The notes: generated from the letters alone by a model not told the origin. DNA of 32,000 nucleotides from Kiritimatiella glycovorans (GCF_001017655.1 NZ_CP010904.1:120001-152000); one strand, 5' to 3'. Positions 1 through 27,100 are shown, counted from the stretch's first letter. Translations and numbers: made by a program.

Positions 1-1403
1 TGGGTCACGAGCCGCCCCGAATTCTCTTCGGCGATGCCGAGCCGGGCATGGGCCATGGGCCCGAAGGCGGTTTCCGAAACGTACCAGCGTCCGGTGATGT
101 TGCGTTCGCTGCCGATCGCCCCGACGGGACAGACCAGCGGGCAGAGCCCGCAGCCCTCGCAGGCCAGCGGCTCCACGCGGTACGTTTTAGCGACGCCGTC
201 TCCCGGCGGGCCGTCGAACCGTATGGCGTTGAAGTGACAGGCCTGCGCGCATCGGCCGCAGCCCACGCAGCGCATGGGATCGATCTCCGCCTTGATGCCC
301 CCCGCGAAATCGTGCCCCTCCCTCACCGCGGGGGCGAGGAGCAGGTGCAGGTCCGCGGCATCCACGTCGTTGTCCGCCAGCACCTTGTTCCGCGCCAGGT
401 GCGCCAGCGAACTGACCACCGTCGTCTTGCCGGTGCCGCCCTTGCCGCTGATCACGGTGACCTCGCGGCACTCGTCCGCATCGCCCTCCTCAAAGGCGGC
501 CGGTTCGTCCTCCGCGAGCTCGAAGATCTCCTCTTCAGGGCAGGGCGGGGCCGCGGCGTACAGGTGATCGTAGATGCCCAGCAGATTCTCCCGCAGCTCC
601 GGGAAGGCCTCCGCCAGGAAGTCCCCGCGCGAATAGGCCTCCGCATACGTGCGCCTGAACGGGATGCGCCCCGCAATGGGGATTCCGACCCGCTGGGCAT
701 AGTCCGCAATGATCCGGTCTTCGCCGTTGGAGCGGTTGATCACGATCCCCGTCGGGACCCCGAGCTTGAGAGTCAGCCCCACGGCCAGCTTGAGGTCGTT
801 CAGGCCGAACGGGGTCGGCTCGGTCACCAGCAGGGCGACGTCCGATCCCTCGACGGCCTCGACGACGGGGCAGGCGGTACCCGGCGAGGCGTCGATGATA
901 TTGACCGCATCCGGGTCGATATATGTTTTGACGTCGCGCACCACGTTCGGCGCCAGGGCCTCGCCGATGTTCAGCAGCCCGTGCGCGAAAAAGAACGGAT
1001 TGGCGGGATCGTCGGCCGGCTCCGCGACCTGGACCTTCCCGATCGCGGTGTCGACCTCCGTAAACGCCTTCTCGGGGCAGACGTAGGAGCAGACTCCGCA
1101 GGAATGGCACAGCTCATTAAACACGAGCACCTTGTCGTTGACCACCGCGATGGCGTTGTAGTTGCACGCCTCGGCGCATTTCCCGCAGGCGGTGCATCGT
1201 TCGCTGTCCCATACGGGTTTCGGCGCAAGCACCTCCCGTCCGTCGGTGAAAGAGGGTTTGACGAAGAGGTGATCGTTCGGCTCCTCGACATCGCAGTCGA
1301 GCAGCCGGACGGGTTCACCGCGTTGCGCGAGCGACGAGGCCAGATTGACCGCAAAGGTCGTCTTGCCCGTACCGCCTTTTCCGCTGGCGATCGTGATAAT
1401 CAT
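1..1403 (-). CDS. MinD/ParA-type P-loop ATPase with 4Fe-4S ferredoxin domains. Two complete ATPase-ferredoxin modules are fused in one frame. The 3' end lies beyond the window.
   Basis: Manual reverse-strand translation from ATG at 1403: MIITIASGKGGTGKTTFAVNLASSLAQRGEPVRLLDCDVEEPN... (Walker A), CTACGKCAEACNYNAI and CHSCGVCSYVCPEKA (2x CxxCxxCxxxCP-type). After an acidic linker comes a second module: VTVISGKGGTGKTTVVSSLA, CVGCGRCAQACHFNAI, CEGCGLCPLVCPVGAI, ...EENSGRLVT. The frame is open to position 1 (467 codons), and I verified it codon by codon at several points. It is absent from the ORF track because no stop lies inside the window. Confidence 0.85.
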   Translation of the reverse strand, partial: MIITIASGKGGTGKTTFAVNLASSLAQRGEPVRLLDCDVEEPNDHLFVKPSFTDGREVLAPKPVWDSERCTACGKCAEACNYNAIAVVNDKVLVFNELCHSCGVCSYVCPEKAFTEVDTAIGKVQVAEPADDPANPFFFAHGLLNIGEALAPNVVRDVKTYIDPDAVNIIDASPGTACPVVEAVEGSDVALLVTEPTPFGLNDLKLAVGLTLKLGVPTGIVINRSNGEDRIIADYAQRVGIPIAGRIPFRRTYAEAYSRGDFLAEAFPELRENLLGIYDHLYAAAPPCPEEEIFELAEDEPAAFEEGDADECREVTVISGKGGTGKTTVVSSLAHLARNKVLADNDVDAADLHLLLAPAVREGHDFAGGIKAEIDPMRCVGCGRCAQACHFNAIRFDGPPGDGVAKTYRVEPLACEGCGLCPLVCPVGAIGSERNITGRWYVSETAFGPMAHARLGIAEENSGRLVT

Positions 1404-1428
1404 AAATTTCCGTTCCCTTTCCGGTCTT

Positions 1429-1641
1429 CTATTCCGAGCGCGTCATGGTCGCGCCGCAGGCGGGACATTGGCGCTGATTGCACGGCGTCCCGCGCCCGTG
1501 GGCCACGCGTTTCCCGCATGCGGGGCAGACGCAGGACCCTCCGGCGCCGAAGCCGGCACCGCCCTGACGTCCCATGCCCCGGCCTTTTCCGCGGCCGCGG
1601 CCGTCGCCCATCGGTCCGGTTCCATCTCCTCGCGGCATCAT
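1429..1641 (-). CDS. Small DUF5320-like protein with an RG-rich segment and a C-terminal zinc ribbon
   Basis: Internal start MMPRGDGTGPMG (ATG ATG at 1641/1638) directly preceded by GGGAGGTGG. The N-terminus matches the MPRGDGTGP signature of DUF5320. This is followed by GRGRGKGRGMGRQGG and then CVCPACG...CPACG (two CPxCG knuckles). Confidence 0.65.
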   Translation of the reverse strand: MMPRGDGTGPMGDGRGRGKGRGMGRQGGAGFGAGGSCVCPACGKRVAHGRGTPCNQRQCPACGATMTRSE

Positions 1642-1707
1642 CCACCTCCCTGCAGTCGAGGACGACGGATGCGCCGGAGCATTCCGGCGCACCCGTTCTC
1701 TGTCCGC

Positions 1708-2082
1708 TTACTTCCCGTCCGATTCCAGATCCGCGATGCGCTTGCGGATATCCTCCAGCGCTTCCTGCAAAGATCCCGCCTGTCCCTTCAACGCCTCCAG
1801 CTCCTGCTCCGGAGCCGGAGCCGCGCCGTAGGGATAGGGAGCGCCCGCGGGCGGATAAGCCGGGGCGGCGTACGGCTGAGGCCCGTATCCTCCCCGCCCG
1901 CGTCCTCCGCGAAAGCCGAATCCGAGCCCGCGACCGAATCCGCCGCGTCCGCGCCCGAACCCGAATCCGCGGCCGGGAACCGGGTTGGCGTATCCGGGCA
2001 CTCCGTACCCGGCGCAGTATCCCGCAGCGCGTCCCGTCATCGGTCCCATTCCTGCCGGTCCTGTTCCATCTCCACCTGGCAT
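1708..2082 (-). CDS. DUF5320-family protein with an RGG/FG low-complexity region and a C-terminal coiled-coil-like tail
   Basis: Internal ATG at 2082 with GGGAGG upstream. Sequence: MPGGDGTGPAGMGPMTGRAAGYCAG..., then GRGFGFGRGRGGFGRGLGFGFRGGRGRGG, a P/A/Y-rich stretch, then EQELEALKGQAGSLQEALEDIRKRIADLE. The upstream 86 codons of track ORF 1708..2340 look non-coding. Confidence 0.7.
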   Translation of the reverse strand: MPGGDGTGPAGMGPMTGRAAGYCAGYGVPGYANPVPGRGFGFGRGRGGFGRGLGFGFRGGRGRGGYGPQPYAAPAYPPAGAPYPYGAAPAPEQELEALKGQAGSLQEALEDIRKRIADLESDGK

Positions 2083-2152
2083 AATGCACCTCCCTGTGCT
2101 GTGTATCTTCCTCGAATCGCGCGCCCCGACGGACGACGCGATCCCGCTTCTC

Positions 2153-2545
2153 CTAAACGCTTCCTCCGCGAAAGCGCCGCCTGCGGCCGCCTCCGCGGCC
2201 CCGGCCCCGCCTGCCGCCGAAGACCGGCTCCGGCCAGGGCTCGGCCGGGTGCAGCGCCCCGGTTCTCCATGCCTCCAGCACGCCCTCCGGTGTGCCCGCG
2301 GCATGAGGGACCACGTCGATGCCGTGTCCCCGGATCGCACTCCACGTGGCCGGATCGATCCCCGCGCAGAGCAGGGTCCCCACGTCGCGCCGCATCAGCT
2401 CGCGGCCCCAGGCAAGCGGATGCCACCCGCGGGTCGATACCTCCGCGCCCGCGTCCGGCGACGCGCCCGTATCAACCACCAGCAGCCGCGTCCCCGCAAA
2501 ACAGGGCGCCATCCTTCCTCCACGGGTCACCAGTGCCGCTTTCAT
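2153..2545 (-). CDS. NifB/NifX-like (FeMo-cofactor-binding fold family) small protein with a C-terminal RG-rich tail
   Basis: MKAALVTRGGRMAPCFAGTRLLVVD...LLCAGIDPATWSAIRGHGIDVV...GVLEAWRTGAL matches the layout of the small NifX/NifB-C-terminal family and of the paralog at 4067-4471. It ends in FGGRRGRGRGGGRRRRFRGG. An alternative in-frame ATG at 2512 follows GGAGGAAGG. Confidence 0.7.
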   Translation of the reverse strand: MKAALVTRGGRMAPCFAGTRLLVVDTGASPDAGAEVSTRGWHPLAWGRELMRRDVGTLLCAGIDPATWSAIRGHGIDVVPHAAGTPEGVLEAWRTGALHPAEPWPEPVFGGRRGRGRGGGRRRRFRGGSV

Positions 2546-2557
2546 GCCTGACCGTGT

Positions 2558-2574
2558 ATGCATGTGTCGTGCCA
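2558..2574 (-). promoter_or_regulatory. Sigma-54 (-24/-12) promoter
   Basis: The minus strand reads TGGCACGACACATGCAT. Against the consensus TGGCACG-N4-TTGCW, GG and GC are correctly spaced and there is one mismatch in the -12 box. It lies between the sigma-54 activator gene and the downstream Fe-S cluster genes. Confidence 0.6.
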
Positions 2575-2687
2575 TTACAGGATTACGATATCTGTAACGA
2601 TATGAACGCGAAGGGATAAAAAAAATATACGCGCGGCGGTGCGACCCGGGGCCATGTGGCATGTTGCGAGTGCCGTCGAGGCGAGCC

Positions 2688-2700
2688 TTGCAGAATGCAA
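2688..2700. promoter_or_regulatory. Palindrome TTGCA-GAA-TGCAA, a candidate upstream activator site for the adjacent sigma-54 activator
   Basis: Perfect 5-bp inverted arms lie about 125 bp upstream of the -24/-12 element. An A8 tract (2618-2625) sits between them, which is unusual in this GC-rich DNA. Confidence 0.3.
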
Positions 2701-2726
2701 CGGCTCATGGCTTTCGGTTCCGGGTC

Positions 2727-4070
2727 TCAGTCGATTCCGTAGCGGTGCATCTTACGGTAGAGGGTACTGGGGTTGATACCGAGCTGGCGGGCGGCGGCCG
2801 CGCGGTTCCCGGCCTGATCGCGCAGGGCGCTGCGGATGGCCTTCTGTTCGAGGCCCTTGAGGGTCAGCGGCGGGGAGGTCTGGTCCTCCGTACTCTCGCG
2901 GAGTTCGGCGGGCAGGTGCTGCGGCTGCACGGCGTTGCCGCGGCAGAGGACGAAGGCGTGTTGGATAACATTCTCGAGTTCGCGGATATTACCGGGGAAG
3001 TCGTGGCGCATGAGGATCTCGTAGACGGCGGGGTCGAGGCGTTCGATCTCTTTGCCGGTCTCGGCGTTGAACCGCCGCCGGAAGTGTTCGGCGAGCAGCG
3101 GGATATCGCATCGCCGCTCGCGCAGCGGCGGGAGTTCCAGCCGCAGCACGTTGAGGCGGTAGTACAGGTCCTGCCGGAAGGTGCCCTCGCTGAGCAGGTC
3201 CGCCAGTCTGCGGTTGGTGGCCGCCAGGATCCGCGCGTCGCTTCGCACCGGCTCGCTGGAGCCGAGGGGCTCATAGGTCTTCTCCTGGAGCACGCGCAGG
3301 AGGCGGACCTGCATGGCCGCGGAGATGTTGCCGATCTCGTCGAGGAACAGGGTTCCGCCGCGTGCGGCATCGAACCGCCCGGGGCGGTCGGACCTGGCAT
3401 CGGTGAACGCGCCTTTGCGGTGGCCGAAGAGTTCGGATTCCAGCAGCGTGTCGGGGAGCGCGCCGCAGTTGACGGCGATGAAGGGGCCCTCGCTCCGGTC
3501 GCTGAGATTGTGGATGGCGCGGGCCAGCAGTTCCTTGCCGGTGCCGCTTTCGCCCTCGATGAGCACCGGGACTTCGGAGGCGGCGACGTCGGGGAGGATC
3601 GCGAAGATGTCGTGCATGTCGGGATGGCGGCTGACGATATCCTGAAAGGTGTAGTTCTGTTCAACGCGCCGCCGCAGGTCCTCCTCGCCGCTCACGTCGC
3701 GGAAAGTCTCGATGCCGCCGATGCATGTTCCGCGGGCGTCGCGCAGCGGGGCGGCGTTGACGCAGACCGTGAACGGGCGGCCGTAGTGATCGATGATGGT
3801 CACCCGCCGGTCCGTTACGCTCGCTTCGGTCTGCGTGACCTCGTCGACGATACAGCGCTCGCCGCAGACGTCGGAGCGGAAGATCTCGCTGCAGGGCCGA
3901 CCGATCGCATCGGTGGCGTCGAAGCCGGTGATCCGCTCCGCGGCGCGGTTGAAGAAGGTGATCCGCTTCTCGCGGTCGACCGTAAACACGCCCTCCGCAA
4001 TACAGTCGAGCATCGCCTCGAGCTGCTTCATGTCGGCATGCTTATTCTGGAGGCGCGAGTCGGAGGTCAT
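2727..4070 (-). CDS. PAS-domain sigma-54-dependent transcriptional activator (bacterial enhancer-binding protein, Fis-type HTH)
   Basis: Start [32 protein letters not shown] (PAS). AAA+ core: [23 protein letters not shown] (GAFTGA-loop variant), [27 protein letters not shown]-terminal HTH: [23 protein letters not shown]. The start overlaps the upstream stop by 4 nt (ATGA). Confidence 0.9.
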
Positions 4071-4471
4071 CCCGTACCCCCCGGGTCCGGTCGCGAACGC
4101 GTCCCGTCCCGCCCGTAGCCGCGGGATACGTCGGGGCGATTCGAGGCTGCGAGCGTCCCGGCCCGCCAGGCCTCGACGACCTCCCGCGCCGACCCCCCGG
4201 CGTCCCGGACGACCGCCACTTTTCCCGCCTCCAGCACGGCGTACGCATTGGGTCCGCAGTGTCCCGTGATCACCGCCTCCGCGTTCAGATCGATGACGCG
4301 CTGCGCGGTCTGAATGCCGGCGCCCCGCCCGGCTTCGAGATTGCGGCTGTTGTCGTGGGCCGACCACGTATCCGTCTCCGTGTCATACAGCAGAAGAAAC
4401 CGCGCCCGCCCGAAACGGGGGTCGAGGGGCGATTCGGGGCGTTCGCCCAGTGCGGTGATGACGATGTTCAT
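4067..4471 (-). CDS. NifB/NifX-like (FeMo-cofactor-binding fold family) small protein
   Basis: Internal ATG at 4471: MNIVITALGERPESPLDPRFGRARFLLLYDTETD...GAGIQTAQRVIDLNAEAVITGHCGPNAYAVLEAGKVAVV...VVEAWRAG. This is the typical pattern of the family. Confidence 0.75.
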   Translation of the reverse strand: MNIVITALGERPESPLDPRFGRARFLLLYDTETDTWSAHDNSRNLEAGRGAGIQTAQRVIDLNAEAVITGHCGPNAYAVLEAGKVAVVRDAGGSAREVVEAWRAGTLAASNRPDVSRGYGRDGTRSRPDPGGTG

Positions 4472-4599
4472 GGTGCCGGGATTCCTTCTCGTGCCGTCGG
4501 TCTTGCGGGGGTTGACGATACGCATTATAATAAAACGCGCGTGATTTTAAAGTCCGGATCCTCCGGCCACGGAAAACAGACGGGAACGAACCTCGCGCG

Positions 4600-5235
4600 A
4601 TGCCAAAGATACTCCCTTTCGAACGGGAACCCCGGCGGTATGACCGGTGGTTCGATGATCACGACGCCGCCTACCGCTCCGAGCTGGCCGCGATCCGGGA
4701 ACTCCTTCCGCCGCGCCCGGGACGGGCGCTGGAGATCGGAAGCGGGACCGGACGCTTTGCACTCCCGCTGGGTATCCGGGAAGGCGTGGAGCCCTCGCCG
4801 GCCATGCGACGAAGGTCCGCCGCGCGCGGCCTGCACGCGATCGACGGCGTCGCGGAAGCGCTCCCGTTCGACGACGCCCGGTTCGATCTTGTCCTTATGG
4901 TGACGACGATCTGTTTCGTGGACGATGCCGCGCAGAGCTGCCGGGAGGCGGCGAGGGTCTTGCATCCCGGAGGACGGTTCATCGTCGGTCTGGTCGACCG
5001 CGACAGTTTTCTCGGCGAGTCCTACGAGGCTCGAAGAAAGGAAAGCGTGTTCTACCGTGACGCGCGCTTCTTCAGCGCGGCGGAGGTCGTCGATTTTATG
5101 AAGGATGCCGGGATGCGGGAGTTCCGGTTCCGGCAGACCCTCTTCAGCATGCCGGCAGAACTCGCCGGTCCCGATTCGATCCGTGAAGGATACGGGGAGG
5201 GAGGGTTTGCGGCGATTTCGGGGGAAAGGGGTTAA
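4600..5235 (+). CDS. Class I SAM-dependent methyltransferase (type 11-like)
   Basis: ALEIGSGTGRFA (motif I), FDLVLMVTTICFVDD, LHPGGRFIVG. Confidence 0.85.
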   Translation: MPKILPFEREPRRYDRWFDDHDAAYRSELAAIRELLPPRPGRALEIGSGTGRFALPLGIREGVEPSPAMRRRSAARGLHAIDGVAEALPFDDARFDLVLMVTTICFVDDAAQSCREAARVLHPGGRFIVGLVDRDSFLGESYEARRKESVFYRDARFFSAAEVVDFMKDAGMREFRFRQTLFSMPAELAGPDSIREGYGEGGFAAISGERG

Positions 5236-5873: not shown

Positions 5874-6328
5874 CGTATTCGTACTCGTACTCGGTACACG
5901 TACTCGGACCGCCGAAGGCGCGATCCCACTCCCCCGGTTCAAGGAACTCGAGTACGAATTATGTTCTCTCTGAATCCCGATTTCGACCTCGATCCGAATT
6001 TCGAGATCCCCTCCGTGTCATCGGTCGAAAACACAAGAAAGGTCTCTCGCAAAGGCGCCGGGATCGCAAAGATGAATGAGAAGAGCACAGGCAAAGAAAT
6101 GGTGCGTTCTCTCTTACGTTCGTAGTAGCGCCGCAGGCCTGCGAAGCAGGGCCAGGGCCGTGATCTTCACGCGCCTGGCCTGCCGGAGGCAGGCTTGCGG
6201 CGCTACTACGAACGATATCACGCGCCTTGGCCCTTCGGACGCGTGCGGCGCTACTACGAACGTTTGTCGTCTCCCATCCCGCCTCTTCCCCGAACGGCTC
6301 CACCGCAAAAATCTGCGAAGAACCCGGC
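5874..6328. repeat. Structured intergenic repeat element, left copy, inverted relative to 9764-10149
   Basis: By-eye alignment with the reverse complement of 9764-10149 shows only scattered mismatches over about 300 bp (6022-6328). There is a further match in the (GTACTC)n-rich outer part, and the left copy carries roughly 90 bp of extra sequence. Confidence 0.8.
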
Positions 6329-8413: not shown

Positions 8414-9727
8414 ATGAATCCTGACGAGTCCATGTTCCGCATCGTGCCGACCGAGACGCTCGGGCCGTGCCGCTACGATTCGCCCCTGGGCGCAATGCGC
8501 CAGCGGTTTTATACCGACGGGGAATGGGTGATCCGCCGGACGCGCAGCCACGAGTTCGAGGAACTCGAAGGTCCCCCCTTCGAGTGCTTCGAGCGATCGG
8601 GCGCAAGGGAGAAGCTCTACTTCCGCCCGCAGGACACCACGGTCGGCATCGTCACCTGCGGCGGACTCTGCCCGGGCATCAACGACGTCATCCGCGCGAT
8701 CACCTTCGCGGCGGCGGAGGGCTACGGTGTGAAACAGGTCCTCGGCTTCCAGTACGGCTACGAGGGGCTGGTCGCCAAGTACTACCACCGGCCGATCGAA
8801 CTCAATCCCGACAATACCGACGACATCCACGAGAAGGGCGGATCGATCCTCAAGTCCTCGCGGGGGCCCCAGGACACGGGGGAAATCGTCGATACCCTCC
8901 AGCACTATTGCGTCGACATCCTGTTTGCCATCGGCGGCGACGGAACGATGCGCGGCGTGCGTGATATCCACGACGAGATCGCCCGGCGCGGTCTCAGGAT
9001 CTCGGTCATCGGCGTGCCGAAGACGATCGACAACGACATCAGTCTCGTGGAGCGGACCTTCGGGTACGAGACCGCGGTGGAGTCGGCCTGGAGCACCATC
9101 ACGTCCGCCCACGCGGAGGCCAAGGGCTACCGGAACGGAATCGGACTGGTGAAACTCATGGGCCGCGACTCAGGCTGGATCGCGGCCTCCACCGCACTCG
9201 CGAACAGCAACGTCAATTTCTGCCTGATTCCCGAAGTGCCGTTCGATCTCGAGCCCCCGAACGGGTTCCTGGAACACCTGCGCCGTCGTCTTATGCGGCG
9301 CGCCCACGCGGTGATCGTGGTCGCGGAGGGTGCGGGACAGAACCTGTTCGAAGGCGAATACGAGCGCGACAAGTCGGGGAACAAGCGGCTGCACGACATC
9401 GGCGTACTTCTTCAGGAGCAAATAGAGCGATTTTTCGCGGAGCAGAACACGGAGATCAATCTGAAGTATTTCGATCCGAGCTATCTCATCCGGAGCACGC
9501 CGGCGAACGCGAACGATTCGGAGTACTGCCTGCGGCTGGGGCACAACGCGGTTCATGCGGCAATGGCCGGCAAGACGAACTGCATCGTCGGGCTGCACTG
9601 TGGCGTGCTGGTCAACCTTCCCATGCCGATGATCGGCGAGCGCAAACGGGTGGACCCCAACGGCTGGACCTGGCAGTCGGTGCTTCAGGCCACTCGACAG
9701 CCCGCCGACATGACCCACGAAGAATGA
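8414..9727 (+). CDS. pfkA: ATP-dependent 6-phosphofructokinase (long, mixed-substrate clade)
   Basis: GIVTCGGLCPGINDVIR, FAIGGDGTMRG (GGDG, not the GGDD of PPi enzymes), PKTIDNDI, LMGRDSGWIA. Confidence 0.85.
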   Translation: MNPDESMFRIVPTETLGPCRYDSPLGAMRQRFYTDGEWVIRRTRSHEFEELEGPPFECFERSGAREKLYFRPQDTTVGIVTCGGLCPGINDVIRAITFAAAEGYGVKQVLGFQYGYEGLVAKYYHRPIELNPDNTDDIHEKGGSILKSSRGPQDTGEIVDTLQHYCVDILFAIGGDGTMRGVRDIHDEIARRGLRISVIGVPKTIDNDISLVERTFGYETAVESAWSTITSAHAEAKGYRNGIGLVKLMGRDSGWIAASTALANSNVNFCLIPEVPFDLEPPNGFLEHLRRRLMRRAHAVIVVAEGAGQNLFEGEYERDKSGNKRLHDIGVLLQEQIERFFAEQNTEINLKYFDPSYLIRSTPANANDSEYCLRLGHNAVHAAMAGKTNCIVGLHCGVLVNLPMPMIGERKRVDPNGWTWQSVLQATRQPADMTHEE

Positions 9728-9760
9728 CGTCCTGACTTCAACATGGCCCGAAAACGCTAC

Positions 9761-9786
9761 AAAAATCCGGCCCCTCGCGGATTTTT
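9761..9786 (+). terminator. Hairpin with T-run downstream of pfk (weak intrinsic-terminator candidate)
   Basis: AAAAATCCG-gcccctcg-CGGATTTTT, 34 nt after the pfk stop. The stem is AT-rich at its base, so it is weak. Confidence 0.3.
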
Positions 9787-10149
9787 GCGGTGGAGCCGTT
9801 CGGGGAAGAGGCGGGATGGGAGACGACGAACGTTCGTAGTAGCGCCGCACGCGCCCGAAGGGCCAAGGCGCGTGATATCGTTCGTAGTAGCGCCGCAAGT
9901 CTGCCCCCCGGCAGGCCAGGCGCGTGAAAGATAACGGCCCTGGCCCTGCTTCGCAGGCCTGCGGGCCTACTACGAACGTAAGAGAGAACGCACCATTTCT
10001 TTGCCTGTGCTCCTCCCATTCATCTTTGCGATCTCTGCGTCTTGGCGAGAGACCTTTCTTGTGTTTTCGACCACGGATTACACCGATCACACGGATGGGA
10101 TCGCGCCTTCGGCGCTCCGAGTACGCGTACGAGTACGAGTAAGAGTACG
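9764..10149. repeat. Structured intergenic repeat element, right copy, inverted relative to 5874-6328
   Basis: See the left copy. It contains the same 19-mer CGTTCGTAGTAGCGCCGCA hairpin arms and a (GAGTAC)n tract. Confidence 0.8.
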
Positions 10150-10381
10150 AATTATGTTCACCCCTTCATGTCCTTCATGGTGAATCCCATTCTCTCCCCA
10201 CGATGGCGATTCAGGTGTTACGCCCCCTTTTTTTTTCGGACGACTGTCCGCGAAAATCCGCGAATAGCCGGCCGCCGACAATACCGACTAAAATACTCCT
10301 GATTTGACCACGTCTCTGTTTTGGCTTAACGTGAATATACGACCGGGCATTTGGGACACTGCACACGAAGGAGTGACGGCC

Positions 10382-11524
10382 ATGAGCGCGCGACTGAATC
10401 GACGCCATCTTTTGCAGGGAACCGGCCTCGCCGCCCTGGCCGCCGCCGGGGGCGGGGCGCGGGCCGCTGAATCCGACGAAGCCGCGATACTCAACCACGA
10501 ACCCGGCATGCCGTATCGCCGGCTCGGGAACACGGATATCCGTCTCTCCGTCCTTTCGCTCGGCGGGATCAAGATCGACGAGCAGGGGATCACCCACCAT
10601 CACGCGATCGACCGGGGCTGCAATCTCGTCCACATCTCCAACGGGTACCGGGGCGGGGTCTGCATCCGGCGGCTGGGGAAGGTCATGAAGACGAAGCGTG
10701 ACCGGGTCTACATCGCGCTCAAGGACAACTTCCTGAGCCGTGAAGACTACCGGAAGCGCGATTTCAGTAAGATCGACCAGTGGCTGAAGGTGCTGAACAC
10801 CGATCATGTCGATTTCCTGATGTTCAATCGCCACAAGGGGGACCAGGCGGCCGAAGCGTATATGCGCGAGTCCCTGGAGATTCTGCGGGAGCAGGGAAAG
10901 GTGCGGTTTGCCGGCCTCACCACCCACGGCGACATCAAAAACTGTCTGCGCAACGGGATCGAGAGCGGTACTTTTCATCTGCTCAATCCCGCGCTCAACC
11001 AGCCGAATCTCGAAGCGCTGGAGGAGGAACTTCGCGACGCGCATGAGCGGCAGCTGGGCGTGATGGCCATGAAGACCATGAAAGGGCAGAAAAGCCGCGC
11101 CGATGAGCTGGCCTTTCTCAAGAAGCTGTTGCGCAATCCGGCCCTGACCACCATTTTAAAAGGCATGGATTCGCCGCAGATGTTTGACGAGTACCTCGCG
11201 GCGGCGCGCACGGAACTGACCGCGGCGGAGGACGAGCGGCTCTACCGCACGGCGCAGCGGCAGCGGGCTGAAAACTGCATGATGTGCGACGCCTGCAAGC
11301 GGGCCTGCCCGGAGGGGATCGAGATCTCGACCGTGCTGCGCTGCAAAGACTATTACCTGGAGCAGGAGCGCGATCCGGAATACGCCTTCGAGCAATATCA
11401 TGCCGTGGCGCCGCAGTACCGCTGGTCGGCGGACTGCACCTCGTGCCGCCGCTGTGAAGCGGCCTGCCCGAACGGGATCGGGATCGTCGCCCGCCTCGAA
11501 GCCGCGCGAAAGGCCCTGGCATGA
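10382..11524 (+). CDS. Tat-signal aldo/keto reductase with a C-terminal 2x[4Fe-4S] ferredoxin domain
   Basis: ATG at 10382 after GAAGGAG. MSARLNRRHLLQGTGLAALAAAGGGARA (twin-arginine signal), YRRLGNTDIRLSVLSLGG (AKR N-terminus), CMMCDACKRACPEG and CTSCRRCEAACPNG. Confidence 0.8.
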   Translation: MSARLNRRHLLQGTGLAALAAAGGGARAAESDEAAILNHEPGMPYRRLGNTDIRLSVLSLGGIKIDEQGITHHHAIDRGCNLVHISNGYRGGVCIRRLGKVMKTKRDRVYIALKDNFLSREDYRKRDFSKIDQWLKVLNTDHVDFLMFNRHKGDQAAEAYMRESLEILREQGKVRFAGLTTHGDIKNCLRNGIESGTFHLLNPALNQPNLEALEEELRDAHERQLGVMAMKTMKGQKSRADELAFLKKLLRNPALTTILKGMDSPQMFDEYLAAARTELTAAEDERLYRTAQRQRAENCMMCDACKRACPEGIEISTVLRCKDYYLEQERDPEYAFEQYHAVAPQYRWSADCTSCRRCEAACPNGIGIVARLEAARKALA

Positions 11525-12405
11525 AATACCGACTTATCCCGGCGTTAACGCTCGCCCTCGCCGTGTATGCTCAGGCGGGCGCGCGGCCGCGCGACCCCGG
11601 CCCCGCCGCGCTGCTTCCGTCGCCGCACTCCCTTGGAGCCGTCGCGGCCTCCGAAACGGAATGTTTCGGCCCTGAGGAACTGTTCGAGTACATCAACGGC
11701 GCCGCCCCGCTCTACCTCGACTACGGCTTCGAGCGGCTGGCGCACCGGGTCTACCGGTTTGAGAAGGGATCGCTCACGGCGGACCTCTACGCCATGCCGG
11801 ACCCGACCCGCGCATTCGGCATCTACGCCGCCGAGCGAGACGCGGAGGCGACCTTTGTGGAAACCGGAGCCGAAGGTTACCGCTGGGGCGACGTGCTGCG
11901 GTTCTTCCGCGGACGTTACTACGTCAAACTCTACGCCGATGCCGGAGAGGATACGGTCCCGCTGCTGGTGCGCGCCGCGAAGGCGATCGATGCACGCCTG
12001 CCCGGCAGGGCGGTGCTGCCCTCCGCGACGACCTGGTTCCCGGAGAAGGGTCGCGTCCCCCATTCGCTCAGTTACACCGTGGAACCCCCGCTGGGGGTCG
12101 AGGCGCTGGCGCCCGCCTGGAAGGCCCGCTATCGCTGCGGCGATGAAGAAAGCACGCTGTGGATCGTTCCGACGGCCGGTGCCGCGCAGGCCGAAGCCGG
12201 GCTCGCCGCGCTCGAAACACAACTGCGAGAATACGACGCGGCGCCGCAGCCATGGGATGAAGCGGACCGGACCGGTCTGCGCGCCGACCATCCGTATGCC
12301 GGGCCTGTACTGGCAACCGCATCCGGAGCGCGCGTCTTCGTCCTGCTCAATCCCCCGCCCGATTCGCTCCCGCTGCTGCGCGCGGCGCGCGAGCGGTGCC
12401 GGTGA
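11521..12405 (+). CDS. Secreted hypothetical protein, translationally coupled to the reductase
   Basis: MKYRLIPALTLALAVYAQA signal peptide. The ATGA overlap with the upstream stop is present. I did not recognise a family with confidence. Confidence 0.6.
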   Translation: MKYRLIPALTLALAVYAQAGARPRDPGPAALLPSPHSLGAVAASETECFGPEELFEYINGAAPLYLDYGFERLAHRVYRFEKGSLTADLYAMPDPTRAFGIYAAERDAEATFVETGAEGYRWGDVLRFFRGRYYVKLYADAGEDTVPLLVRAAKAIDARLPGRAVLPSATTWFPEKGRVPHSLSYTVEPPLGVEALAPAWKARYRCGDEESTLWIVPTAGAAQAEAGLAALETQLREYDAAPQPWDEADRTGLRADHPYAGPVLATASGARVFVLLNPPPDSLPLLRAARERCR

Positions 12406-12443
12406 AAGCGCGGACGGCGAAGTCTCACGCGGGTTCCGGCGGC

Positions 12444-13826
12444 TTATTCAATCCACATCCGTTCGATTTCCTCGAGCGATTTGCCTTTGGTCTCCGGCAC
12501 GTAGCGAAGCACGACAAAGATCGTGACGGCGCAGAAGGCCGCGTAGACCCAGAACGGGAAGGCGTGGTTGAACGTATCCACGAGCACGGGATGATCGTTC
12601 ATGATCGGAAAGGTCTGCGACACCGCGTAGCAGGAGATCCAGAGCACGACCGTGGACAGCGCCATCGCACGCCCTCGGATGCGCGTGGGGAAGATTTCCG
12701 AGAGCACGACCCAGACCACCGGCCCGAGTGACATCGCGAAGCAGGCGATGTAGATCAGCACGAAGATCAGCGCCCACGCCCCGGTGGCGCGGAAGAAAAA
12801 ACCGAATCCCAGCGTCAGCAGCGAGAGGCCCATGCCCGCCGATCCGATGACCATGAGCGGCTTGCGCCCGAAGCGGTCCACCGTATACAGCGCGATCACG
12901 GTGAACGTCATGTTCACCAGTCCCACCGCGACCGTCTGGAGCAGCGCTGCATTCATGTCCGCGCCGAGGTCTTTAAAAATTTCCGGGGCGTAGTAGAGCA
13001 CCACGTTAATCCCGGTGACCTGCTGCAGGATCGCGAGGCTGATCCCGATGATGAGCAGGATACGCATACGCGGCTGGAAGAGCTGGGCCAGCGAACCGCC
13101 CTCGTGTGCCAGGTTGGTCCGGATCTCGCGCAGCTCGTGCTCGGCGTGAGCCGGACCGTCGACGCGCGTAAGGACCCCGTTCGCGATCTTTTCCCGGCCC
13201 ATCTTCACCAGCCAGCGCGGACTCTCGGGAACCAGAAATAAAAGCAGGAACAGAAGCAGGGCCGGCACGGACTCGGACGCGAACATCCAGCGCCAGCCGA
13301 AGTTCAGGTTCCAGGTTTCGCTGATGCCCGCCCCGTGCCGTTCGATGAAGAAGTTGACGAAGTAGACGACGACCATTCCCAGCACGATGGCGAACTGGTT
13401 AACGGTCACCATGCGCCCGCGAATCCGTGCCGGGGAGACCTCCGCGATGTACATCGGCGAGGTGAGCGAGGCCGCGCCCACGCCGACCCCACCGAGAATA
13501 CGGAAAAGGACGAATTCCGTAAGCGAGCGGGGCATCGCCGACCCGACGGCGGAGATGAAGAAACACACCGCGGCGAAGATCAGCGTCTTTTTCCGACCCA
13601 GCCGGTCGCTGAGCGTACCTGCCAGCGCGGCACCGAAAATGCAGCCGATCAAGGCGCTCGACGCCGCCCAGCCGGTCATCGCCGGGGAGAGATCAAAGAA
13701 ATCGCGCAGGAATCCCACCGCACCCGATATGACCGCTGTGTCGTACCCGAACAGCAGTCCGCCCAGCGCCGCCACCATCGCGATCAGCGCCACATACAGC
13801 ATATTTCCGCCGGCCCGTTCCTTCAT
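12444..13826 (-). CDS. MFS sugar porter (XylE/GalP-like sugar:H+ symporter)
   Basis: ATG at 13826 after AGGAGG. Motifs: LFGYDTAVISGA, GRKKTL, PESPRWL, PETKGKSLEEIE. Confidence 0.9.
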   Translation of the reverse strand: MKERAGGNMLYVALIAMVAALGGLLFGYDTAVISGAVGFLRDFFDLSPAMTGWAASSALIGCIFGAALAGTLSDRLGRKKTLIFAAVCFFISAVGSAMPRSLTEFVLFRILGGVGVGAASLTSPMYIAEVSPARIRGRMVTVNQFAIVLGMVVVYFVNFFIERHGAGISETWNLNFGWRWMFASESVPALLLFLLLFLVPESPRWLVKMGREKIANGVLTRVDGPAHAEHELREIRTNLAHEGGSLAQLFQPRMRILLIIGISLAILQQVTGINVVLYYAPEIFKDLGADMNAALLQTVAVGLVNMTFTVIALYTVDRFGRKPLMVIGSAGMGLSLLTLGFGFFFRATGAWALIFVLIYIACFAMSLGPVVWVVLSEIFPTRIRGRAMALSTVVLWISCYAVSQTFPIMNDHPVLVDTFNHAFPFWVYAAFCAVTIFVVLRYVPETKGKSLEEIERMWIE

Positions 13827-14320: not shown

Positions 14321-14394
14321 CGGGGAGTAGCTCAGCCTGGCAGAGCGCCAGCTTTGGGAGCTGGATGTCGCAGGTTCGAATCCTGTCTCCCCGA
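14321..14394 (+). tRNA. tRNA-Pro (anticodon UGG)
   Basis: Manual cloverleaf: acceptor CGGGGAG/CTCCCCG, D-arm GCTC/GAGC, anticodon arm CCAGC-TTTGGGA-GCTGG (TGG, G37), T-arm GCAGG-TTCGAAT-CCTGT, discriminator A. No CCA is encoded. Confidence 0.9.
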
Positions 14395-14425: not shown

Positions 14426-15634
14426 GGTAGGTTGTAAACCCAAATGCCGCATGTAGTGGTCTTGTTTCATTTATGAGATCGTTTTGAGTTCGTTCGTGAA
14501 GAGTTCGTGAGGGGTCATGAAGTCGAGGATCCGGCGCGGGTAGTTATTGATCCATAGCTCGATGTCGCGGATTTTCTGCTTGGTAAAGCGCGCGATATCC
14601 CGGCCCTTGGCCACGAACCGTCTGATCATCCTGTTGCCGTTCTCGTTCGATCCGCGTTCCCAGGATGAGTATGGGTGGGCGTAGAAGATCTGGGTTCGCT
14701 GTTGCTTCGAGAAGGAAGAGGCTTCTAAGGCTTCGAAGTCCAGGAACTCGCTGCCGTTGTCGACCGTGATGGTCTTGAAGATCTGACGGAAGCAGCGGGA
14801 GCCATGTTCACGCTCGAGCCCTCTGAGAACTTTGAGCACGCTGGCTTGGCTCTTATCAGGCAGCTTGCGAATGATCGTGATCCGATGTCTGCGTTCCACC
14901 AGGGTCAATAGGGCGGCATTGGACCCGCGCGTGGGGCCGGTCACCAGGTCCATCTCCCAGTGTCCGAACTCCTCGCGCGTCTCGGCTCCTTCGGGACGCT
15001 GGTCGATGCTTTTGCCTTTGGAAATCCGCTTCGCCAACCGCCGAGCGCCGCGTTTGCGCCGCTTGGCTCGCTTACGCTTCTCCCACAGTGACTCGTTGCT
15101 GAGCCCGAAAATGACGCCTTTATCGATGTAGTTATAGATCGTCTTGGTGCACACCACCTCCTCCAGACCGGCCTGACGCATCCGAAAGGCGACTACATCG
15201 GGCGATTCCTTATGTTCCACAATGCGGCAACGGATGAATTCGGCCAGCGCATAGTTGCGGCCCAGCCTCAGACCGGGCCCCCTTGCGGTGGCGTGGTAAT
15301 CATGGAGGTCCTGGCCGCGATCGCTGCTGTAGGTCCGGTATTCCCGCCACTCCGAGTCCCGGTGGGTCACCGTCCCGCGCTTGAGCTCACGCTGGATCGT
15401 ACGCGGGTGACGCTCCAAGGCGGCCGCGATGTCCCGTGGGGGGATCCCCCCACGGGACATCCGCTCAATCACCATGCGCTCCACCCTCGTCAAGTGCTTG
15501 CCCTTCCTGCTATTCTGATTCTGTTCCATGCCGTCTCCTTCCTCTGTTGTCCTGTTGTAAGACCACAAAGGATAGCGAACCACGGCATGGAACGCTCTCT
15601 CCTATACCTGCGGCATTTCACATTACACTTCTCA
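14426..15634 (-). mobile_element. IS30-family insertion sequence
   Basis: A single IS30-type transposase ORF. Imperfect terminal inverted repeats share the core TGTAA-n5-AAATGCCGCA-n-GTA, starting at 14433 and, reverse-complemented, at 15627. The 15-bp direct repeat TTTATCTCATTTTCT lies at 14411-14425 and 15635-15649. Confidence 0.85.
14471..15529 (-). CDS. IS30-family transposase
   Basis: ATG at 15529 after GGAAGGAG. N-terminal HTH region (LTRVERMVIERMSRGG..., RTIQRELKRG) and DDE core (GHWEMDLV, ITVDNGSEF, HPYSSWERGSNENGNRMIRRF). Confidence 0.9.
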   Translation of the reverse strand: MEQNQNSRKGKHLTRVERMVIERMSRGGIPPRDIAAALERHPRTIQRELKRGTVTHRDSEWREYRTYSSDRGQDLHDYHATARGPGLRLGRNYALAEFIRCRIVEHKESPDVVAFRMRQAGLEEVVCTKTIYNYIDKGVIFGLSNESLWEKRKRAKRRKRGARRLAKRISKGKSIDQRPEGAETREEFGHWEMDLVTGPTRGSNAALLTLVERRHRITIIRKLPDKSQASVLKVLRGLEREHGSRCFRQIFKTITVDNGSEFLDFEALEASSFSKQQRTQIFYAHPYSSWERGSNENGNRMIRRFVAKGRDIARFTKQKIRDIELWINNYPRRILDFMTPHELFTNELKTIS

Positions 15635-24120: not shown

Positions 24121-27100
24121 CTAAAAGTCAATATCGAAGAGATAGAATACCCCCTGGTCACTACCGTCTGCGCCTGCGCCCTGCATTACGCCAAACCGGC
24201 TTCCAGGATGCGCCACCAGAAAAGCCGGTATTGCTGCCCACGCACGGAAGAGAGGGGGACGTTCAGAGAAATCAGGTCCTGGACTGCGCAAAGGAGCAAC
24301 GAAGGATCGTAGTATCAATCTGGCGTCGGCCCTCCTCACATTTTGAGGGCTTTTAGCTCCGGCAAGCTCCCTGTCATGCATCAGATACGTAACATCGAGC
24401 CAGTTCCTGACCGGCGCGCCCTGTGGATAGCCAATGGCATCAGGCCCAATGTTCTCGGGGCGCATTCCGCTTTGGCCGGCACGCCGGTAGTAGCCGACCA
24501 TATTGGCGCCCCCATAGGGACCATACCAAATACGACTGGGGATGAAGTATTCCCACCATCTTGGCGTATCTTGTCCTGAATCGCACAGCCCGAACGGGTC
24601 AGTACCATTCACCGGATCATTCCCGCAGAACACATACTGGTTCAACCCGCCGTTGATCCCGATGGGATCTTTACTGAGGAATCTCCCTGTGACGGGGTCA
24701 TACCACCGCGCGCGGAATTGATAGAGGCCGTAGCCGCCGGTGGTTTCGTGCAGAGCCCAGTCGTACTCGCGCCCCTGCCAGAGGTAGCGGTTCGCGAGCG
24801 CGGAGCGGGTCAGCTCCTCGCCGTCGGCCTGGCGCACGGCCTCGACCCGCCCCCAGGCGTTGTACTCGTACGACTCGGCCACCGCGCCGGTCTCGTCGAG
24901 CAGCGCGTGGACGGTGCCCTGCGGGTCGGTGAGCGCGTAGTACGTGTTTGTCGCCCCGGACTCGTAGTCGGTGAACGAGAGCAGCCGGTCGATTTCCGGG
25001 GCCCATACATACGTGCGGCGCAGCGTCCCGCTCTCGTCGATCTCGGCGACGACCTGTTCGCCGTCGTAGATGTAATGAACCGTGTTGGTCGCCCCGGAAG
25101 TTCTCACCTCGCGGCGGGTCCGGCGCCCGTCGAGATCGTACTCGTGTTCGATCTCCAGCCCGCCGAGCGTGACGGAGGTGAGCCGGTAGCGGCCGTCCCA
25201 CCGAAGTTCCGCATCCCAATCGGCCGCGTGGCCGCGGCAGGTGATGTTCGTCACGCAGCCCGCGGCGTCGTACCCGTACTGCGCGTTGGTCACCACCCCC
25301 AGCACCAGCGTATGGGTCGCGTAGCCCATGTTCCCCGCCGCGTCGCGGATCGCCGCCGTGACCTCCTGCGTCGACCAGCCCACCACGAAGTCCTCGGCGC
25401 GAAATACCGCCCCGCTGACCTCCGGTGTGACGCACGAGACGGCGTTGCTGATCTGAAGATACCCGAACGCGCCGTTCGTACCGATCGGTTCGGAGGAACT
25501 CCCGAGCACGTCGAACGTGCGCAGCGAGGCGAAGTCATTGGAAGACGTCGCCGTCCACGCCGCGAGCCGATTGCCCGCGCCGCGGGTATAGTCCACGGTC
25601 CAGTCCCCGCCGCGCTTCGAGGTGCGGTTCCCGGCGGCGTCGTAGCGGTAGGTCATGGTGTTTTCGCCGCGCGTCCCGGTCCGGAGCCGCTCGAGCGCGT
25701 CGTAGGCATACGACGCGCGGTTCGTCGTCGCCGCAGTCCGGATGACGCGCGAGGTGATCATGCCTGCGGCATCATAGCCGTACTTGATCTCGAGCGCAAC
25801 GGTGCTCCCGGCGTGCCAGAGCAGATTTGTCACGCGATCCATCACGTCGCAGTGCCGACTCATCCAGACGCCCGCGTTCGTCGCGCTGATCGACGCGAGT
25901 CGGCCGTGGGTCGGGTCGTAGGCCAGCGTCCAGTCCGATCCCGGTCCGGAGAGCGCGTCCACCCGCTCCGCCGCGTCAATGCCCCAGGAGTAGAGGAGGT
26001 TCGTTCCCGCGCAGCTCACCTGCGCGTTCGTCCGGTTTCCCGCAGGATCGTACCCGTACGCGAGACTCCAGTCCTCGCCCGGCCGGTCGACCTCGCGTCC
26101 GATGAGCCGCCCCGCGCCGTCGTAGCGGTTCGACACCGAGCCCGTCGCATCGCCGGCCGTGCGCAGGAGGCCGTTCGAGGCATAGGTGTAGATATTCGTC
26201 GCGTCCGGGTAGCGCGCCTCCGAACGCCGCCCGTCCCGGTCATAATCGTAGCCGACCTCCGTACCGTCGAAACGGGTGATCGCCAGGACGTAGTCGCCCA
26301 CCCCGTTTGAGACGCTCATCTGCTGGCCTTCCAGGTTGGTGACCTCTTCCACGCGTCCCTGCAGATCGAGCCGGTAGGTCTCCACCGCCCGGTCCAGCCG
26401 GTCGGTGATCGAGAGCGTATGAAAGAGCGGGTCATAGGCGTAGCGGATGGTGAGATTCGTCCCGTTGCACACCCGGCCGATCTCGCGAACCTTCCCGGTC
26501 GGGTACCAGCGGGTCGTCGTCACCCGCCCCGCGCGGTCCACATGATTCGTCACCCGTCCGTGCGCGTCGCGGGCGAACTGCTCGCCGGTCCCGTCGGGAT
26601 AGCGCACCTCCAGCACGCGGCCGAGCGCATCCACCCGGTTGCTCGCCAGACACACGCCGCCGCGTTCGGTGCGCACGAGATGGCCCAGCTCGTTATAGGC
26701 GAAGCTCAGCGCCGGTCCCGCCTGCGGCACCGACGAGGTGCGAAAGCCGCTCGCGTCGTAGTAATGCCGCGTCCAGTGCCCGTTGGCGTTGGTCACCGCC
26801 GCCAGCAGACCGTGGGTGGTGTACGCCAGGCGCGTCTCTGTGGTTCGGTTGGTGGCGGGGAACGTACGGATCGCCGCGACCAGGCCGTTCGTGTAATCGA
26901 ACTCCGTGCGCAGGCCCGAGGCATCGGTGAGGACCTGCAGGAGGTTATGGGTATCGTACGTCATCGACTCGAAACAGCGCGGGTCTGTGCCGTAGCCGGT
27001 TCCGCGCAGGGTGCGGTTGTTCCGCGCGTCGTACTGCGACCAGGTGCGGATGAAGAGGTTGGTGTCCGCCGCGTACCGGGTCTCGTTGGTCGTGTTGCCC

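Follow-up and report, generated by a model that had tools for sequence, protein, structure and literature searches.

A gene cluster at the start of a 32-kb stretch of the Kiritimatiella glycovorans genome (the whole stretch is called the window below) is most likely a rearranged version, of a Kiritimatiella or Planctomycetota-Verrucomicrobiota-Chlamydiota (PVC) type, of the orp system of Desulfovibrio vulgaris, in which an OrpR switch would control an anaerobic metalloprotein complex that handles metal-sulfide. The cluster occupies the minus strand of positions 1..4471. By calling and translating open reading frames (ORFs), it was found that six genes lie there in one direction, as an initial annotation made from the sequence alone had claimed. 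They encode a NifX-like protein (NifX1), an OrpR-type sigma-54 activator, a second NifX-like protein (NifX2), a DUF5320 protein, a small Cys-rich protein, and a MinD-ferredoxin ATPase (Table 1). The activator and the ATPase are each 100% identical to database proteins of Kiritimatiella glycovorans.

The initial annotation had taken this neighbourhood to have no experimentally established function. The neighbourhood is not an unstudied one, however: it corresponds to the D. vulgaris Hildenborough orp cluster DVU2103-DVU2109, which has been studied experimentally (Fievet 2011/2014/2021, Pardoux 2019). There, DVU2103-2105 (orp3-5) and DVU2107-2109 (orp7-9) form two divergent sigma-54 operons that flank orpR (DVU2106). 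The ORP complex, its regulation by sigma-54, integration host factor (IHF) and OrpR, the maturation factor MrpORP, and the inducing signal have been worked out in this species (PMC8359166, PMC3897727, PMC6345978, PMC4641369). The paralogues Orp3 and Orp4 resemble MinD, contain two [4Fe-4S] ferredoxin motifs each, and are members of one complex. Orp8 is the orange protein (ORP), which has a NifX-type domain and a non-covalent Mo-Cu-S cluster, while Orp9 is MrpORP, an Fe-S carrier that matures Orp3 and Orp4. OrpR has a PAS–AAA+–HTH (helix-turn-helix) architecture, in which C52, C61, C65 and a nearby Asp or Glu hold a [4Fe-4S] cluster; at about -425 mV it is active, whereas at about -280 mV it is not, and its ChIP-seq (chromatin immunoprecipitation sequencing) targets are the two orp operons only (PMC8359166). 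The loop of DVU2106 is listed as GAFTDA (PMC4641369).

Likeness to the orp system of Desulfovibrio vulgaris

Like the D. vulgaris orp cluster, the window cluster combines a PAS activator whose Cys-x8-Cys-x3-Cys pattern includes an acidic residue at +2 and whose loop is GAFTDA, a sigma-54 promoter adjoining the activator gene, a separate sigma-70-type promoter for the activator, two MinD-type [4Fe-4S] modules, a small MPxGDGT protein, single-domain NifX proteins of the Orp8 family, and no link to nitrogenase. The arrangement is different. The window genes are collinear on one strand and do not form two divergent operons, the Orp4-like and Orp3-like modules are fused, and NifX1 is co-transcribed with orpR instead of being controlled by sigma-54. 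The host also differs, being a fermentative Kiritimatiellota bacterium, a sugar-fermenting anaerobe outside the delta-proteobacteria.

The activator has the OrpR architecture, with a PAS domain, an AAA+ sigma-54 interaction domain, and a Fis-type HTH. The PAS domain contains C60-x8-C69-x3-C73 together with E62, which is the pattern of C52, D/E54, C61 and C65 in D. vulgaris, and the loop is the GAFTDA variant of GAFTGA. The Cys triad and the GAFTDA loop are invariant in 14 aligned homologues (labelled Kiritimatiellia, Lentisphaeria, Fibrobacteria, and Thermodesulfobacteriota), although GAFTDA is not universal, as L057, a Desulfovibrionaceae relative, has GAFTGA. A cognate sigma-54 promoter lies 153 nt past the stop codon of the activator gene. 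As judged from its translation, the window activator has every sequence hallmark of OrpR, and redox sensing via a [4Fe-4S] cluster is predicted by homology with D. vulgaris OrpR. The initial annotation had seen in the activator and its promoter a handle for finding the inducing signal; by the same homology, this signal, a low redox potential that three PAS cysteines sense by means of their [4Fe-4S] cluster, is probably already known.

The NifX1 stop codon overlaps the orpR start codon (ATGA, 4070..4067), and thus the two ORFs should be translationally coupled. Upstream of them, a consensus scan found a sigma-70-like TTTAAA-16-TATAAT with 10 of 12 consensus matches (one site, with 0.5 expected in 5 kb). 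D. vulgaris orpR likewise has its own sigma-70 promoter.

Is this gene set common in other anaerobes? A scan with the PAS alignment, using one genome per species, listed at least 80 loci, to which the K. glycovorans locus itself does not belong, and the listed loci were searched with the window proteins. This gene-neighbourhood census, which the initial annotation had advised, revealed two or more different orp-type families, all within 10 kb of the Cys3-PAS activator, in about 31 of the 80 listed loci. NifX-like, DUF5320, small-Cys, and paired MinD-ferredoxin genes recur in this way in several phyla. The labels of the loci, as deposited, include Lentisphaerales, Phycisphaerae/Planctomycetota, Spirochaetes, Syntrophobacteraceae, Desulfuromonadales, Nitrospiraceae, Desulfovibrionaceae, CSSED10-310, and Bacillota. 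In published work, OrpR has been thought to be restricted to the delta-proteobacteria (PMC8359166); the loci of several phyla contradict this impression.

The closest contig that was read, L081, has an activator 70% identical and an ATPase 77% identical to those of the window. Its gene order is NifX1, orpR, a sigma-54 site 13 nt before the next ATG, NifX2, the small Cys protein, a radical SAM (S-adenosylmethionine) protein, a second sigma-54 site, a fused ATPase, a fusion of NifX with 2x[4Fe-4S], and a ferredoxin. L082 and L003 have related sets with thioredoxin, DUF89, IscU-like, and radical SAM genes. Fusions between the parts were also found. A NifX2-like domain is fused to the Cys6-His module of the small protein in L018, L028, and L066 (labelled Syntrophobacteraceae or delta-proteobacterium), and a NifX1-like domain is fused to an arginine-glycine (RG)-rich and coiled-coil, DUF5320-like tail in L060 (Planctomycetota). 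These fusions indicate that the parts are functionally linked.

Around the PVC-type clusters, several other genes recur (L003 2146-7453; L081 2974-3933 and 6117-7074; L082 7311-21848). An IscU-like scaffold gene lies directly upstream of orpR, and DUF89/ARMT1-like, radical SAM, thioredoxin, NifX+2x[4Fe-4S] fusion, and small ferredoxin genes are further neighbours, as are a TonB receptor with a FecCD-type ABC importer and FmdE.

The NifX-like proteins could suggest another identity, namely that the cluster is a set of ordinary nif accessory genes. A nitrogenase would then be encoded directly beyond the window edge, and its FeMo-cofactor would be assembled with the help of the NifX-like proteins and of a NifH-like ATPase. 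The Pfam name for the family of both NifX proteins is indeed 'dinitrogenase iron-molybdenum cofactor', and their domain (PF02579/IPR003731) is shared with NifX, NafY, and the C-terminal domain of NifB as a non-covalent binder of anionic metal-sulfur clusters. The activator scores well against the NifA model, although below the cutoff, as any enhancer-binding protein does. However, its sensor is a Cys3 PAS domain and not the GAF domain of NifA. The ATPase is MinD/Mrp-like with an inserted ferredoxin domain and is not NifH; its Fer4_NifH match is restricted to the Walker A region. The NifX proteins are single-domain proteins outside any nifB/nifEN context. No nifHDK, nifEN, or nifB was found among the ORFs of the 32 kb, and none was found in the fuller clusters of L003, L081, and L082. 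In addition, the nifH carriers listed among the surveyed Kiritimatiellota genomes do not include K. glycovorans (PMC10880615). The initial annotation was thus right that nitrogenase genes are missing, and a role as a nif accessory set is extremely improbable.

Promoter, candidate enhancer and start codon

The sequence TGGCACGACACATGCA at 2574..2559 (next base T) is the sole match to the sigma-54 promoter with at most one mismatch in the window. Such a match alone is not significant, as 0.48 matches are expected and 38 of 100 shuffled sequences give at least one. The cross-locus comparison is more telling. With the pattern TGGCAC-N5-TTGCW on the same strand (at most two mismatches, GG and GC required), a site was found 120-280 nt past the orpR stop codon in about 24 of the 80 listed loci, while about 0.9 would be expected from the overall site density of about 0.06 per kb per strand. 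Since the position relative to the orpR stop codon recurs across loci, the sigma-54 promoter is considered to be real. It lies exactly where the initial annotation had placed it (2558-2574); the pairing of a dedicated PAS activator (by Pfam) with a matching sigma-54 promoter was confirmed as well. The description of the whole cluster as sigma-54-controlled in that annotation applies only to the four genes downstream of the site, which are those for NifX2, the DUF5320 protein, the small Cys protein, and the ATPase. NifX1 and the activator gene lie upstream, behind the sigma-70-like promoter. In about 20 of 26 loci, a NifX2-like gene comes after the orpR-proximal sigma-54 site.

The ATG of NifX2 (2545) is only 13 nt after the 16-mer promoter element. 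With GC at -12, transcription is predicted to start at about 2548, and the resulting leader of about 3 nt has no space for a ribosome-binding site. The operon mRNA should therefore be essentially leaderless. In D. vulgaris, in contrast, the orp leaders are about 35-45 nt long and have Shine-Dalgarno sites. Of the 26 promoter regions examined, 12 have a spacing of 11-17 nt between promoter and ATG (the window, L003, L004, L005, L009, L015, L031, L057, L058, L060, L073, and L077), and the separately retrieved L081 shares it (13 nt). The genes at this spacing are all NifX2-like and begin with MK(I/V)A(I/V)P…GR(I/V)(S/A)P. An ATG-initiated ORF of at least 60 amino acid residues begins 10-17 nt past 9 of 62 strong sigma-54-like sites, compared with 4% of random positions. 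Eight of these nine ORFs are NifX2-like and the other one is orpR itself (L082).

The L082 case concerns a Kiritimatiellae metagenome-assembled genome, in which TGGCACGGTATGTGCT (6982-6953, minus strand) precedes an orpR-like gene with exactly 13 nt to the ATG. This suggests that the L082 orpR is autoregulated and that its layout is leaderless too.

A downstream start codon for NifX2 (MAPCF..., with a GGAGGA site) was also considered and was rejected, as that Met is Ile or Val in relatives. The upstream ATG was kept because the N-terminal strand MK(I/V)A(I/V) is conserved while the downstream Met is not. If true, leaderless sigma-54 transcripts, which are unusual, would occur across several phyla.

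By aligning the intergenic regions of the loci on the promoter, a perfect palindrome, TTGCA-N3-TGCAA, was found. It occurs in a single copy in the window, about 146 nt upstream of the predicted transcription start. With at most one mismatch, 9 copies are present in 7 of the 26 orpR-downstream intergenic regions, where 0.29 would be expected (about 30-fold enrichment). I infer that TTGCATTCTGCAA is a candidate for the OrpR-binding enhancer; the D. vulgaris OrpR sites are at -131 and -88. Other sub-groups of the loci have GTTTCA…TGAAAC repeats or the D. vulgaris-type motif. Generic searches for inverted and direct repeats in the two intergenic regions gave nothing convincing.

Products of the cluster

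When the family assignments of the initial annotation were examined by profile searches, NifX1, the activator, and the DUF5320 protein (2082..1708) were confirmed directly. NifX2 was below the threshold and was confirmed by profile-profile comparison, whereas the assignment of the fifth gene was lost.

NifX1 is a single-domain protein of the NifX/ORP family. Its best solved relative is D. gigas ORP (2WFB, E=1.2e-11), and TM1290 is almost equal. In a distance tree, NifX1 groups with the orpR-adjacent genes of PVC-type loci (50-52% identity). True ORP orthologues, which are 64-68% identical to D. gigas ORP, form a separate clade in this tree, and their loci are labelled Desulfovibrionaceae, Syntrophobacteraceae, delta-proteobacterium, or Nitrospiraceae.

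NifX2, the first gene of the sigma-54 operon, stands in the position of Orp7. The NifX2 family matches the NifX1 family over the whole domain in hhalign (98.4% probability, E=5e-15, 103 columns), and thus NifX2 is a divergent NifX/IPR003731 domain. It has a tail that is not present in NifX1, PAEPWPEP followed by GGRRGRGRGGGRRRRFRGG, with an isoelectric point (pI) of 12.0. The 34 residues of the tail include 9 Arg or Lys, 9 Gly, 4 Pro, and 3 aromatic residues, and Arg-rich cationic tails were found in seven of nine NifX2 homologues.

This layout is that of IssA of Pyrococcus furiosus (PF2025; Vaccaro 2017), where an IPR003731 domain is followed by a Pro-rich segment and then by a cationic, Gly-rich, aromatic-containing tail of high pI, which has been proposed to bind or wrap anionic thioferrate electrostatically (PMC5524996). 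In NifX2, the domain is likewise followed by a Pro-rich and then a cationic, disordered tail. In NifX2 the tail has about half the length and is dominated by Arg, and the likeness is one of layout. IssA is associated with sulfidic, very reducing conditions as well; a sigma-54 switch, a DUF5320 protein, or a MinD-ferredoxin ATPase is not known to accompany it.

Could the cluster then be an iron-sulfur store of the IssA type, in which NifX2, possibly with the DUF5320 and small Cys proteins, nucleates and wraps a thioferrate-like (FeS2-)n polymer by means of cationic Gly/Arg/aromatic tails and the Fe-S ATPase loads or mobilises the store? This would be a specific version of the functional step of the orp reading and does not compete with it on the identity of the genes. 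It agrees with the tail layout and with the conservation of poly-Arg tails across NifX2 homologues. Expression at a very low, sulfidic redox potential would fit, and in Methanococcus voltae, cells with an accumulation of thioferrate-like iron have raised levels of expression of two IPR003731 proteins. On the other hand, the window tails are much shorter (about 35 residues, compared with 70) and Arg-dominated, ORP proper binds a Mo-Cu-S cluster and not thioferrate, and the Orp proteins have no experimental tie to iron storage. Storage of this kind is a tentative and unlikely version.

The DUF5320 protein has an MPGGDGTGP N-terminus, a cationic middle rich in RG, FG, Pro, and Tyr, and an acidic, coiled-coil-like C-terminal segment. 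The middle (82 residues) contains 26 Gly, 8 Arg, 13 aromatic, and no acidic residues and has a pI of 10.4. Homologues were found in 22 of the loci.

The fifth gene had been described as another DUF5320 protein, with a zinc ribbon. Its 69-residue product starts with MPRGDGTGP, followed by an Arg/Gly-rich linker and a CxCxxC-x5-H-x5-C-x4-CxxC module; the N-terminal half (34 residues) contains 16 Gly and 6 Arg or Lys. It has no Pfam match, and since only the first 11 residues are in common with DUF5320 (11 N-terminal columns, 59% in hhalign), the protein is outside this family. The module of six Cys and one His is conserved in 13 homologues that adjoin orp-type genes. DVU2105/Orp5 starts with MPYGDGT, similarly to the N-termini of both the small protein and the DUF5320 protein, the comparison being one of N-termini only. 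The 69-residue protein is thus called Orp5-like here, and it would be a small Cys6-His metal or Fe-S protein. An Orp5 homologue is cited as binding [2Fe-2S] (Maiti 2016, as cited in PMC6345978).

The ATPase was correctly assigned to the MinD-ferredoxin family by the initial annotation but is not a single unit. It was revealed that one ORF encodes two tandem MinD-2x[4Fe-4S] modules, with the Walker A motif GKGGTGKTT at residues 8 and 317 and with the second module beginning near residue 305. Pfam gave two stretches of CbiA, four stretches of Fer4, and ParA/NUBPL. These modules correspond to the two paralogous MinD-like ATPases Orp3 and Orp4, each with two [4Fe-4S] motifs, in a fused form. In 16 of 19 loci that have both modules they are separate adjacent genes, while they are in one frame in the window and in L003/L008, which are one Lentisphaerales contig. 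The database protein P0121 is identical (100%) to the window ATPase over all 467 residues of the latter. Its 119 next-best relatives (68-77% identical) are all fused, and all but one are 600-677 residues long, the exception being a partial record of 565 residues. The named fused relatives belong to Kiritimatiellia, Verrucomicrobiota, Victivallales, and Krumholzibacteriaceae. The fusion is thus a clade feature.

As in the Mrp/NBP35/ApbC and MinD/CooC/NifH (SIMIBI) ATPases, the modules have a deviant Walker A, GKGGxGK[ST], and a DxxPGTx switch-II. They differ from these ATPases in the 2x[4Fe-4S] ferredoxin domain inserted in each module and from Mrp in having Cys directly after PGT[AG], where Mrp has the PGTGDE/CxxC arrangement. 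A dimer-based function is implied by the tandem fusion, which supports a physical association of the Orp4-like and Orp3-like parts and argues for a heterodimeric ATPase.

The MinD likeness raises the question of whether the fused ATPase might act at the membrane or the cell pole as a MinD-like cell-division or polar-positioning device, with the small proteins as its partners. The authors of the D. vulgaris studies call the orp genes putatively cell-division genes and observed morphological defects upon OrpR inactivation; MrpORP has a polar localisation, and amphipathic C-terminal helices like those of MinD have been ascribed to Orp3 and Orp4. The closest solved fragments are also those of archaeal MinD proteins. 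However, these authors themselves present an involvement in division as a hypothesis (PMC8359166). The similarity to structures in PDB is confined to the N-terminal, Walker A end of the MinD proteins or to ferredoxins, and the whole architecture occurs in no solved structure. Furthermore, with the fusion the first module has its C-terminus buried, the C-terminal part of the second one appears to be missing from the K. glycovorans record (see below), and by Pfam none of the other operon products looks like MinC, MinE, or a component of the divisome. A positioning device is therefore improbable.

Proposed mechanism and surroundings of the cluster

Taken as an orp system, the cluster may work as follows. 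The sigma-70-like promoter (a consensus match) would give a bicistronic, coupled NifX1-orpR message. By analogy with D. vulgaris, OrpR would be active only at a very low redox potential (about -425 mV in that species) and would be switched off when the potential rises. Active OrpR would bind the palindromic enhancer, for which TTGCATTCTGCAA is the candidate, and open the sigma-54 promoter at 2574..2558. The near-leaderless mRNA would then be translated into NifX2, the DUF5320 protein, the small Cys protein, and the fused ATPase, that is, an IssA-like NifX-fold protein, an RG/aromatic protein, an Orp5-like protein, and Orp4-like and Orp3-like ATPases as a single polypeptide. The four products may, in analogy to the ORP complex of D. 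vulgaris, assemble into a metalloprotein complex specific to anaerobiosis. The complex would carry out an ATP-driven binding, storage, or transfer of anionic metal-sulfide (Fe-S or Mo/Cu-S), in which NifX-fold scaffolds are stabilised by cationic tails. The handling of anionic metal-sulfide with ATP is favoured here because of the IssA-like cationic segments in NifX2, the DUF5320 protein, and the small protein, together with the domain fusions; the conserved poly-Arg tails point to ligands of this kind. A more specific picture, in which the cluster is a low-redox bacterial IssA-like system, with a NifX scaffold and three proteins with cationic segments wrapping metal-sulfide, a pseudo-dimeric Fe-S ATPase loading and releasing it, and a rare, dedicated class of leaderless sigma-54 transcripts that several phyla share and that has the -12 element at a conserved 11-14 nt from the first ATG, is unlikely in this full form.

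Several observations weigh against the orp reading. The function of orp is unproven even in Desulfovibrio, and the sequence comparison with Desulfovibrio Orp proteins was limited to short N-termini and D. gigas ORP from PDB. With an identity of 33% to D. gigas ORP and a place in a separate clade, NifX1 is of the same fold family but is no ORP orthologue; as the orange protein proper (the orthologue of Orp8 and D. gigas ORP, a Mo-Cu-S carrier) it was rejected. No MrpORP (Orp9) and no Mrp-type ORF were found among the window ORFs, the NCBIfam MrpORP model giving 64 bits (cutoff 450) on the Walker A of the MinD-ferredoxin ATPase only. Unlike D. vulgaris, which has GGGCGYRTTTTGCGCCC as the enhancer, the window has TTGCA-N3-TGCAA; the former is absent from the window at up to three mismatches. 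Nor is there an IHF consensus (WATCARNNNNTTR, at most one mismatch) between the candidate enhancer and the promoter, where a T8 tract may be an intrinsic bend that replaces the IHF site. About half of the listed Cys3-PAS activator loci have no orp genes nearby, although some of them are short contigs. In L043 (Desulfovibrio sp., 9705-13166), an OrpR-like activator with the Cys triad is found before non-orp genes, with a D. vulgaris-type enhancer, GGCGTGTTTTGCGCC, and a sigma-54 site. The targets there are a repeat-rich protein of 419 residues (beta-propeller-like by eye) and a membrane protein of 241 residues (NarI-like by eye). Because the L043 activator fronts unrelated genes, the Cys3-PAS activator family is wider than orp.

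The integrity of the ATPase gene is another such point. P0121 is only 496 residues long, while its homologues have about 605, and within residues 485-496 it ends with …ILGDGPPVPAAP (GDGPPVPAAP), where the two homologues compared with it (P0126 and P0162) have GDGPPGTGCPV. A one-base frameshift in the Cys motif of switch-II would give such an end; it would lie outside the window, about 87 nt past its first position. The ATPase may thus be damaged and the system of this strain impaired, or else the database record may be wrong through an error of sequencing. If the gene is truly frameshifted, the cluster could be a decaying and inactive remnant, for which the shortness of P0121 relative to the 119 relatives and its aberrant end would speak. 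Nevertheless, the ATPase gene is intact up to codon 467, as are all of the other five genes, and a strong third-position GC bias is seen in them; the promoter and the palindrome are intact too. The gain or loss of one base in a GC-rich homopolymer context is, besides, the kind of error that is typical of assemblies. Decay of the cluster is improbable.

The question of what orp does becomes wider with these loci. The orp genes are among the few anaerobe-specific, widely conserved metalloprotein gene sets that are without a known function after more than a decade of work in Desulfovibrio. Loci that combine an OrpR-type switch with orp-type genes were found well beyond the delta-proteobacteria, in Kiritimatiellota, Lentisphaerota, Planctomycetota, and other phyla, and what seemed a peculiarity of sulfate reducers may be a general feature of strict anaerobes. 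K. glycovorans would provide a cultured, non-sulfate-reducing host for studying the system.

Table 1. Genes and regulatory elements of the cluster in the window
Feature	Position	Strand	Description
Sigma-70-like promoter TTTAAA-16-TATAAT	4551..4524	-	Upstream of NifX1-orpR; consensus match only
NifX1	4471..4067	-	134 aa; Pfam Nitro_FeMo-Co E=6.8e-21
OrpR-type sigma-54 activator	4070..2727	-	447 aa; PAS_4/PAS/PAS_9, Sigma54_activat E=1.7e-67 (226.8 bits), AAA_lid_14, HTH_8
Candidate enhancer palindrome TTGCATTCTGCAA	2688..2700	none	TTGCA-N3-TGCAA
T8 tract	2625..2618	-	Between candidate enhancer and promoter
Sigma-54 promoter TGGCACGACACATGCAT	2574..2558	-	GG 2573-2572, GC 2561-2560
NifX2	2545..2153	-	130 aa; Nitro_FeMo-Co 23.7 bits, cutoff 26.3
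DUF5320 protein	2082..1708	-	124 aa; PF17253 E=4.3e-25, 89.2 bits, cutoff 27
Small Cys protein, Orp5-like	1638..1429	-	69 aa; sub-threshold zinc-ribbon Pfam matches only
Fused Orp4-Orp3-like ATPase	1403..<1	-	5' 467 codons in window; continues past window start

The remaining genes of the window encode an acyl-CoA ligase, a pyrophosphate-dependent phosphofructokinase, three sulfatases, an IS30 transposase, an RHS protein, and a phosphoketolase. A divergent gene next to the cluster, encoding a class I SAM-dependent methyltransferase (4600..5235, plus strand), was considered as a member and was rejected, as a homologue near the cluster was found only in L082. There, the homologue (40% identical) directly follows the cluster; with no other locus having it, the association is doubtful. 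No Rfam family was found in the cluster, and the sole match in the window is a tRNA at 14321.

This tRNA gene (14321-14394, plus strand) adjoins the gene of the IS30-family transposase (14471-15583, minus strand). The window also contains several repeats. A short intergenic repeat, ACGTTCGTAGTAGCGCCGCA…, is present at 6116 and, in two copies 48 nt apart, at 9830 and 9878, in a region extending to 9908, and a separate 48-nt tandem repeat lies at 6167-6262. The intergenic repeats of 6116-6262 and 9830-9908 look like repetitive extragenic palindromic elements. Between two of the sulfatase genes, about 15 tandem copies of a 16-nt unit (GAAATCGTG[G/C/A]AACGAG) form an array at 17146-17427, with higher-order periods of 80 and 96 nt. 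Finally, the GC content falls to 0.49-0.52 in 22000-28680, compared with about 0.65, and a 49-nt repeat occurs at 22359 and 23008. The low-GC stretch is just 3′ of the stop codon of the gene encoding the RHS-repeat protein of 1519 residues (24121-28680, minus strand), and 22000-28680 may be foreign DNA or a toxin/immunity cassette.

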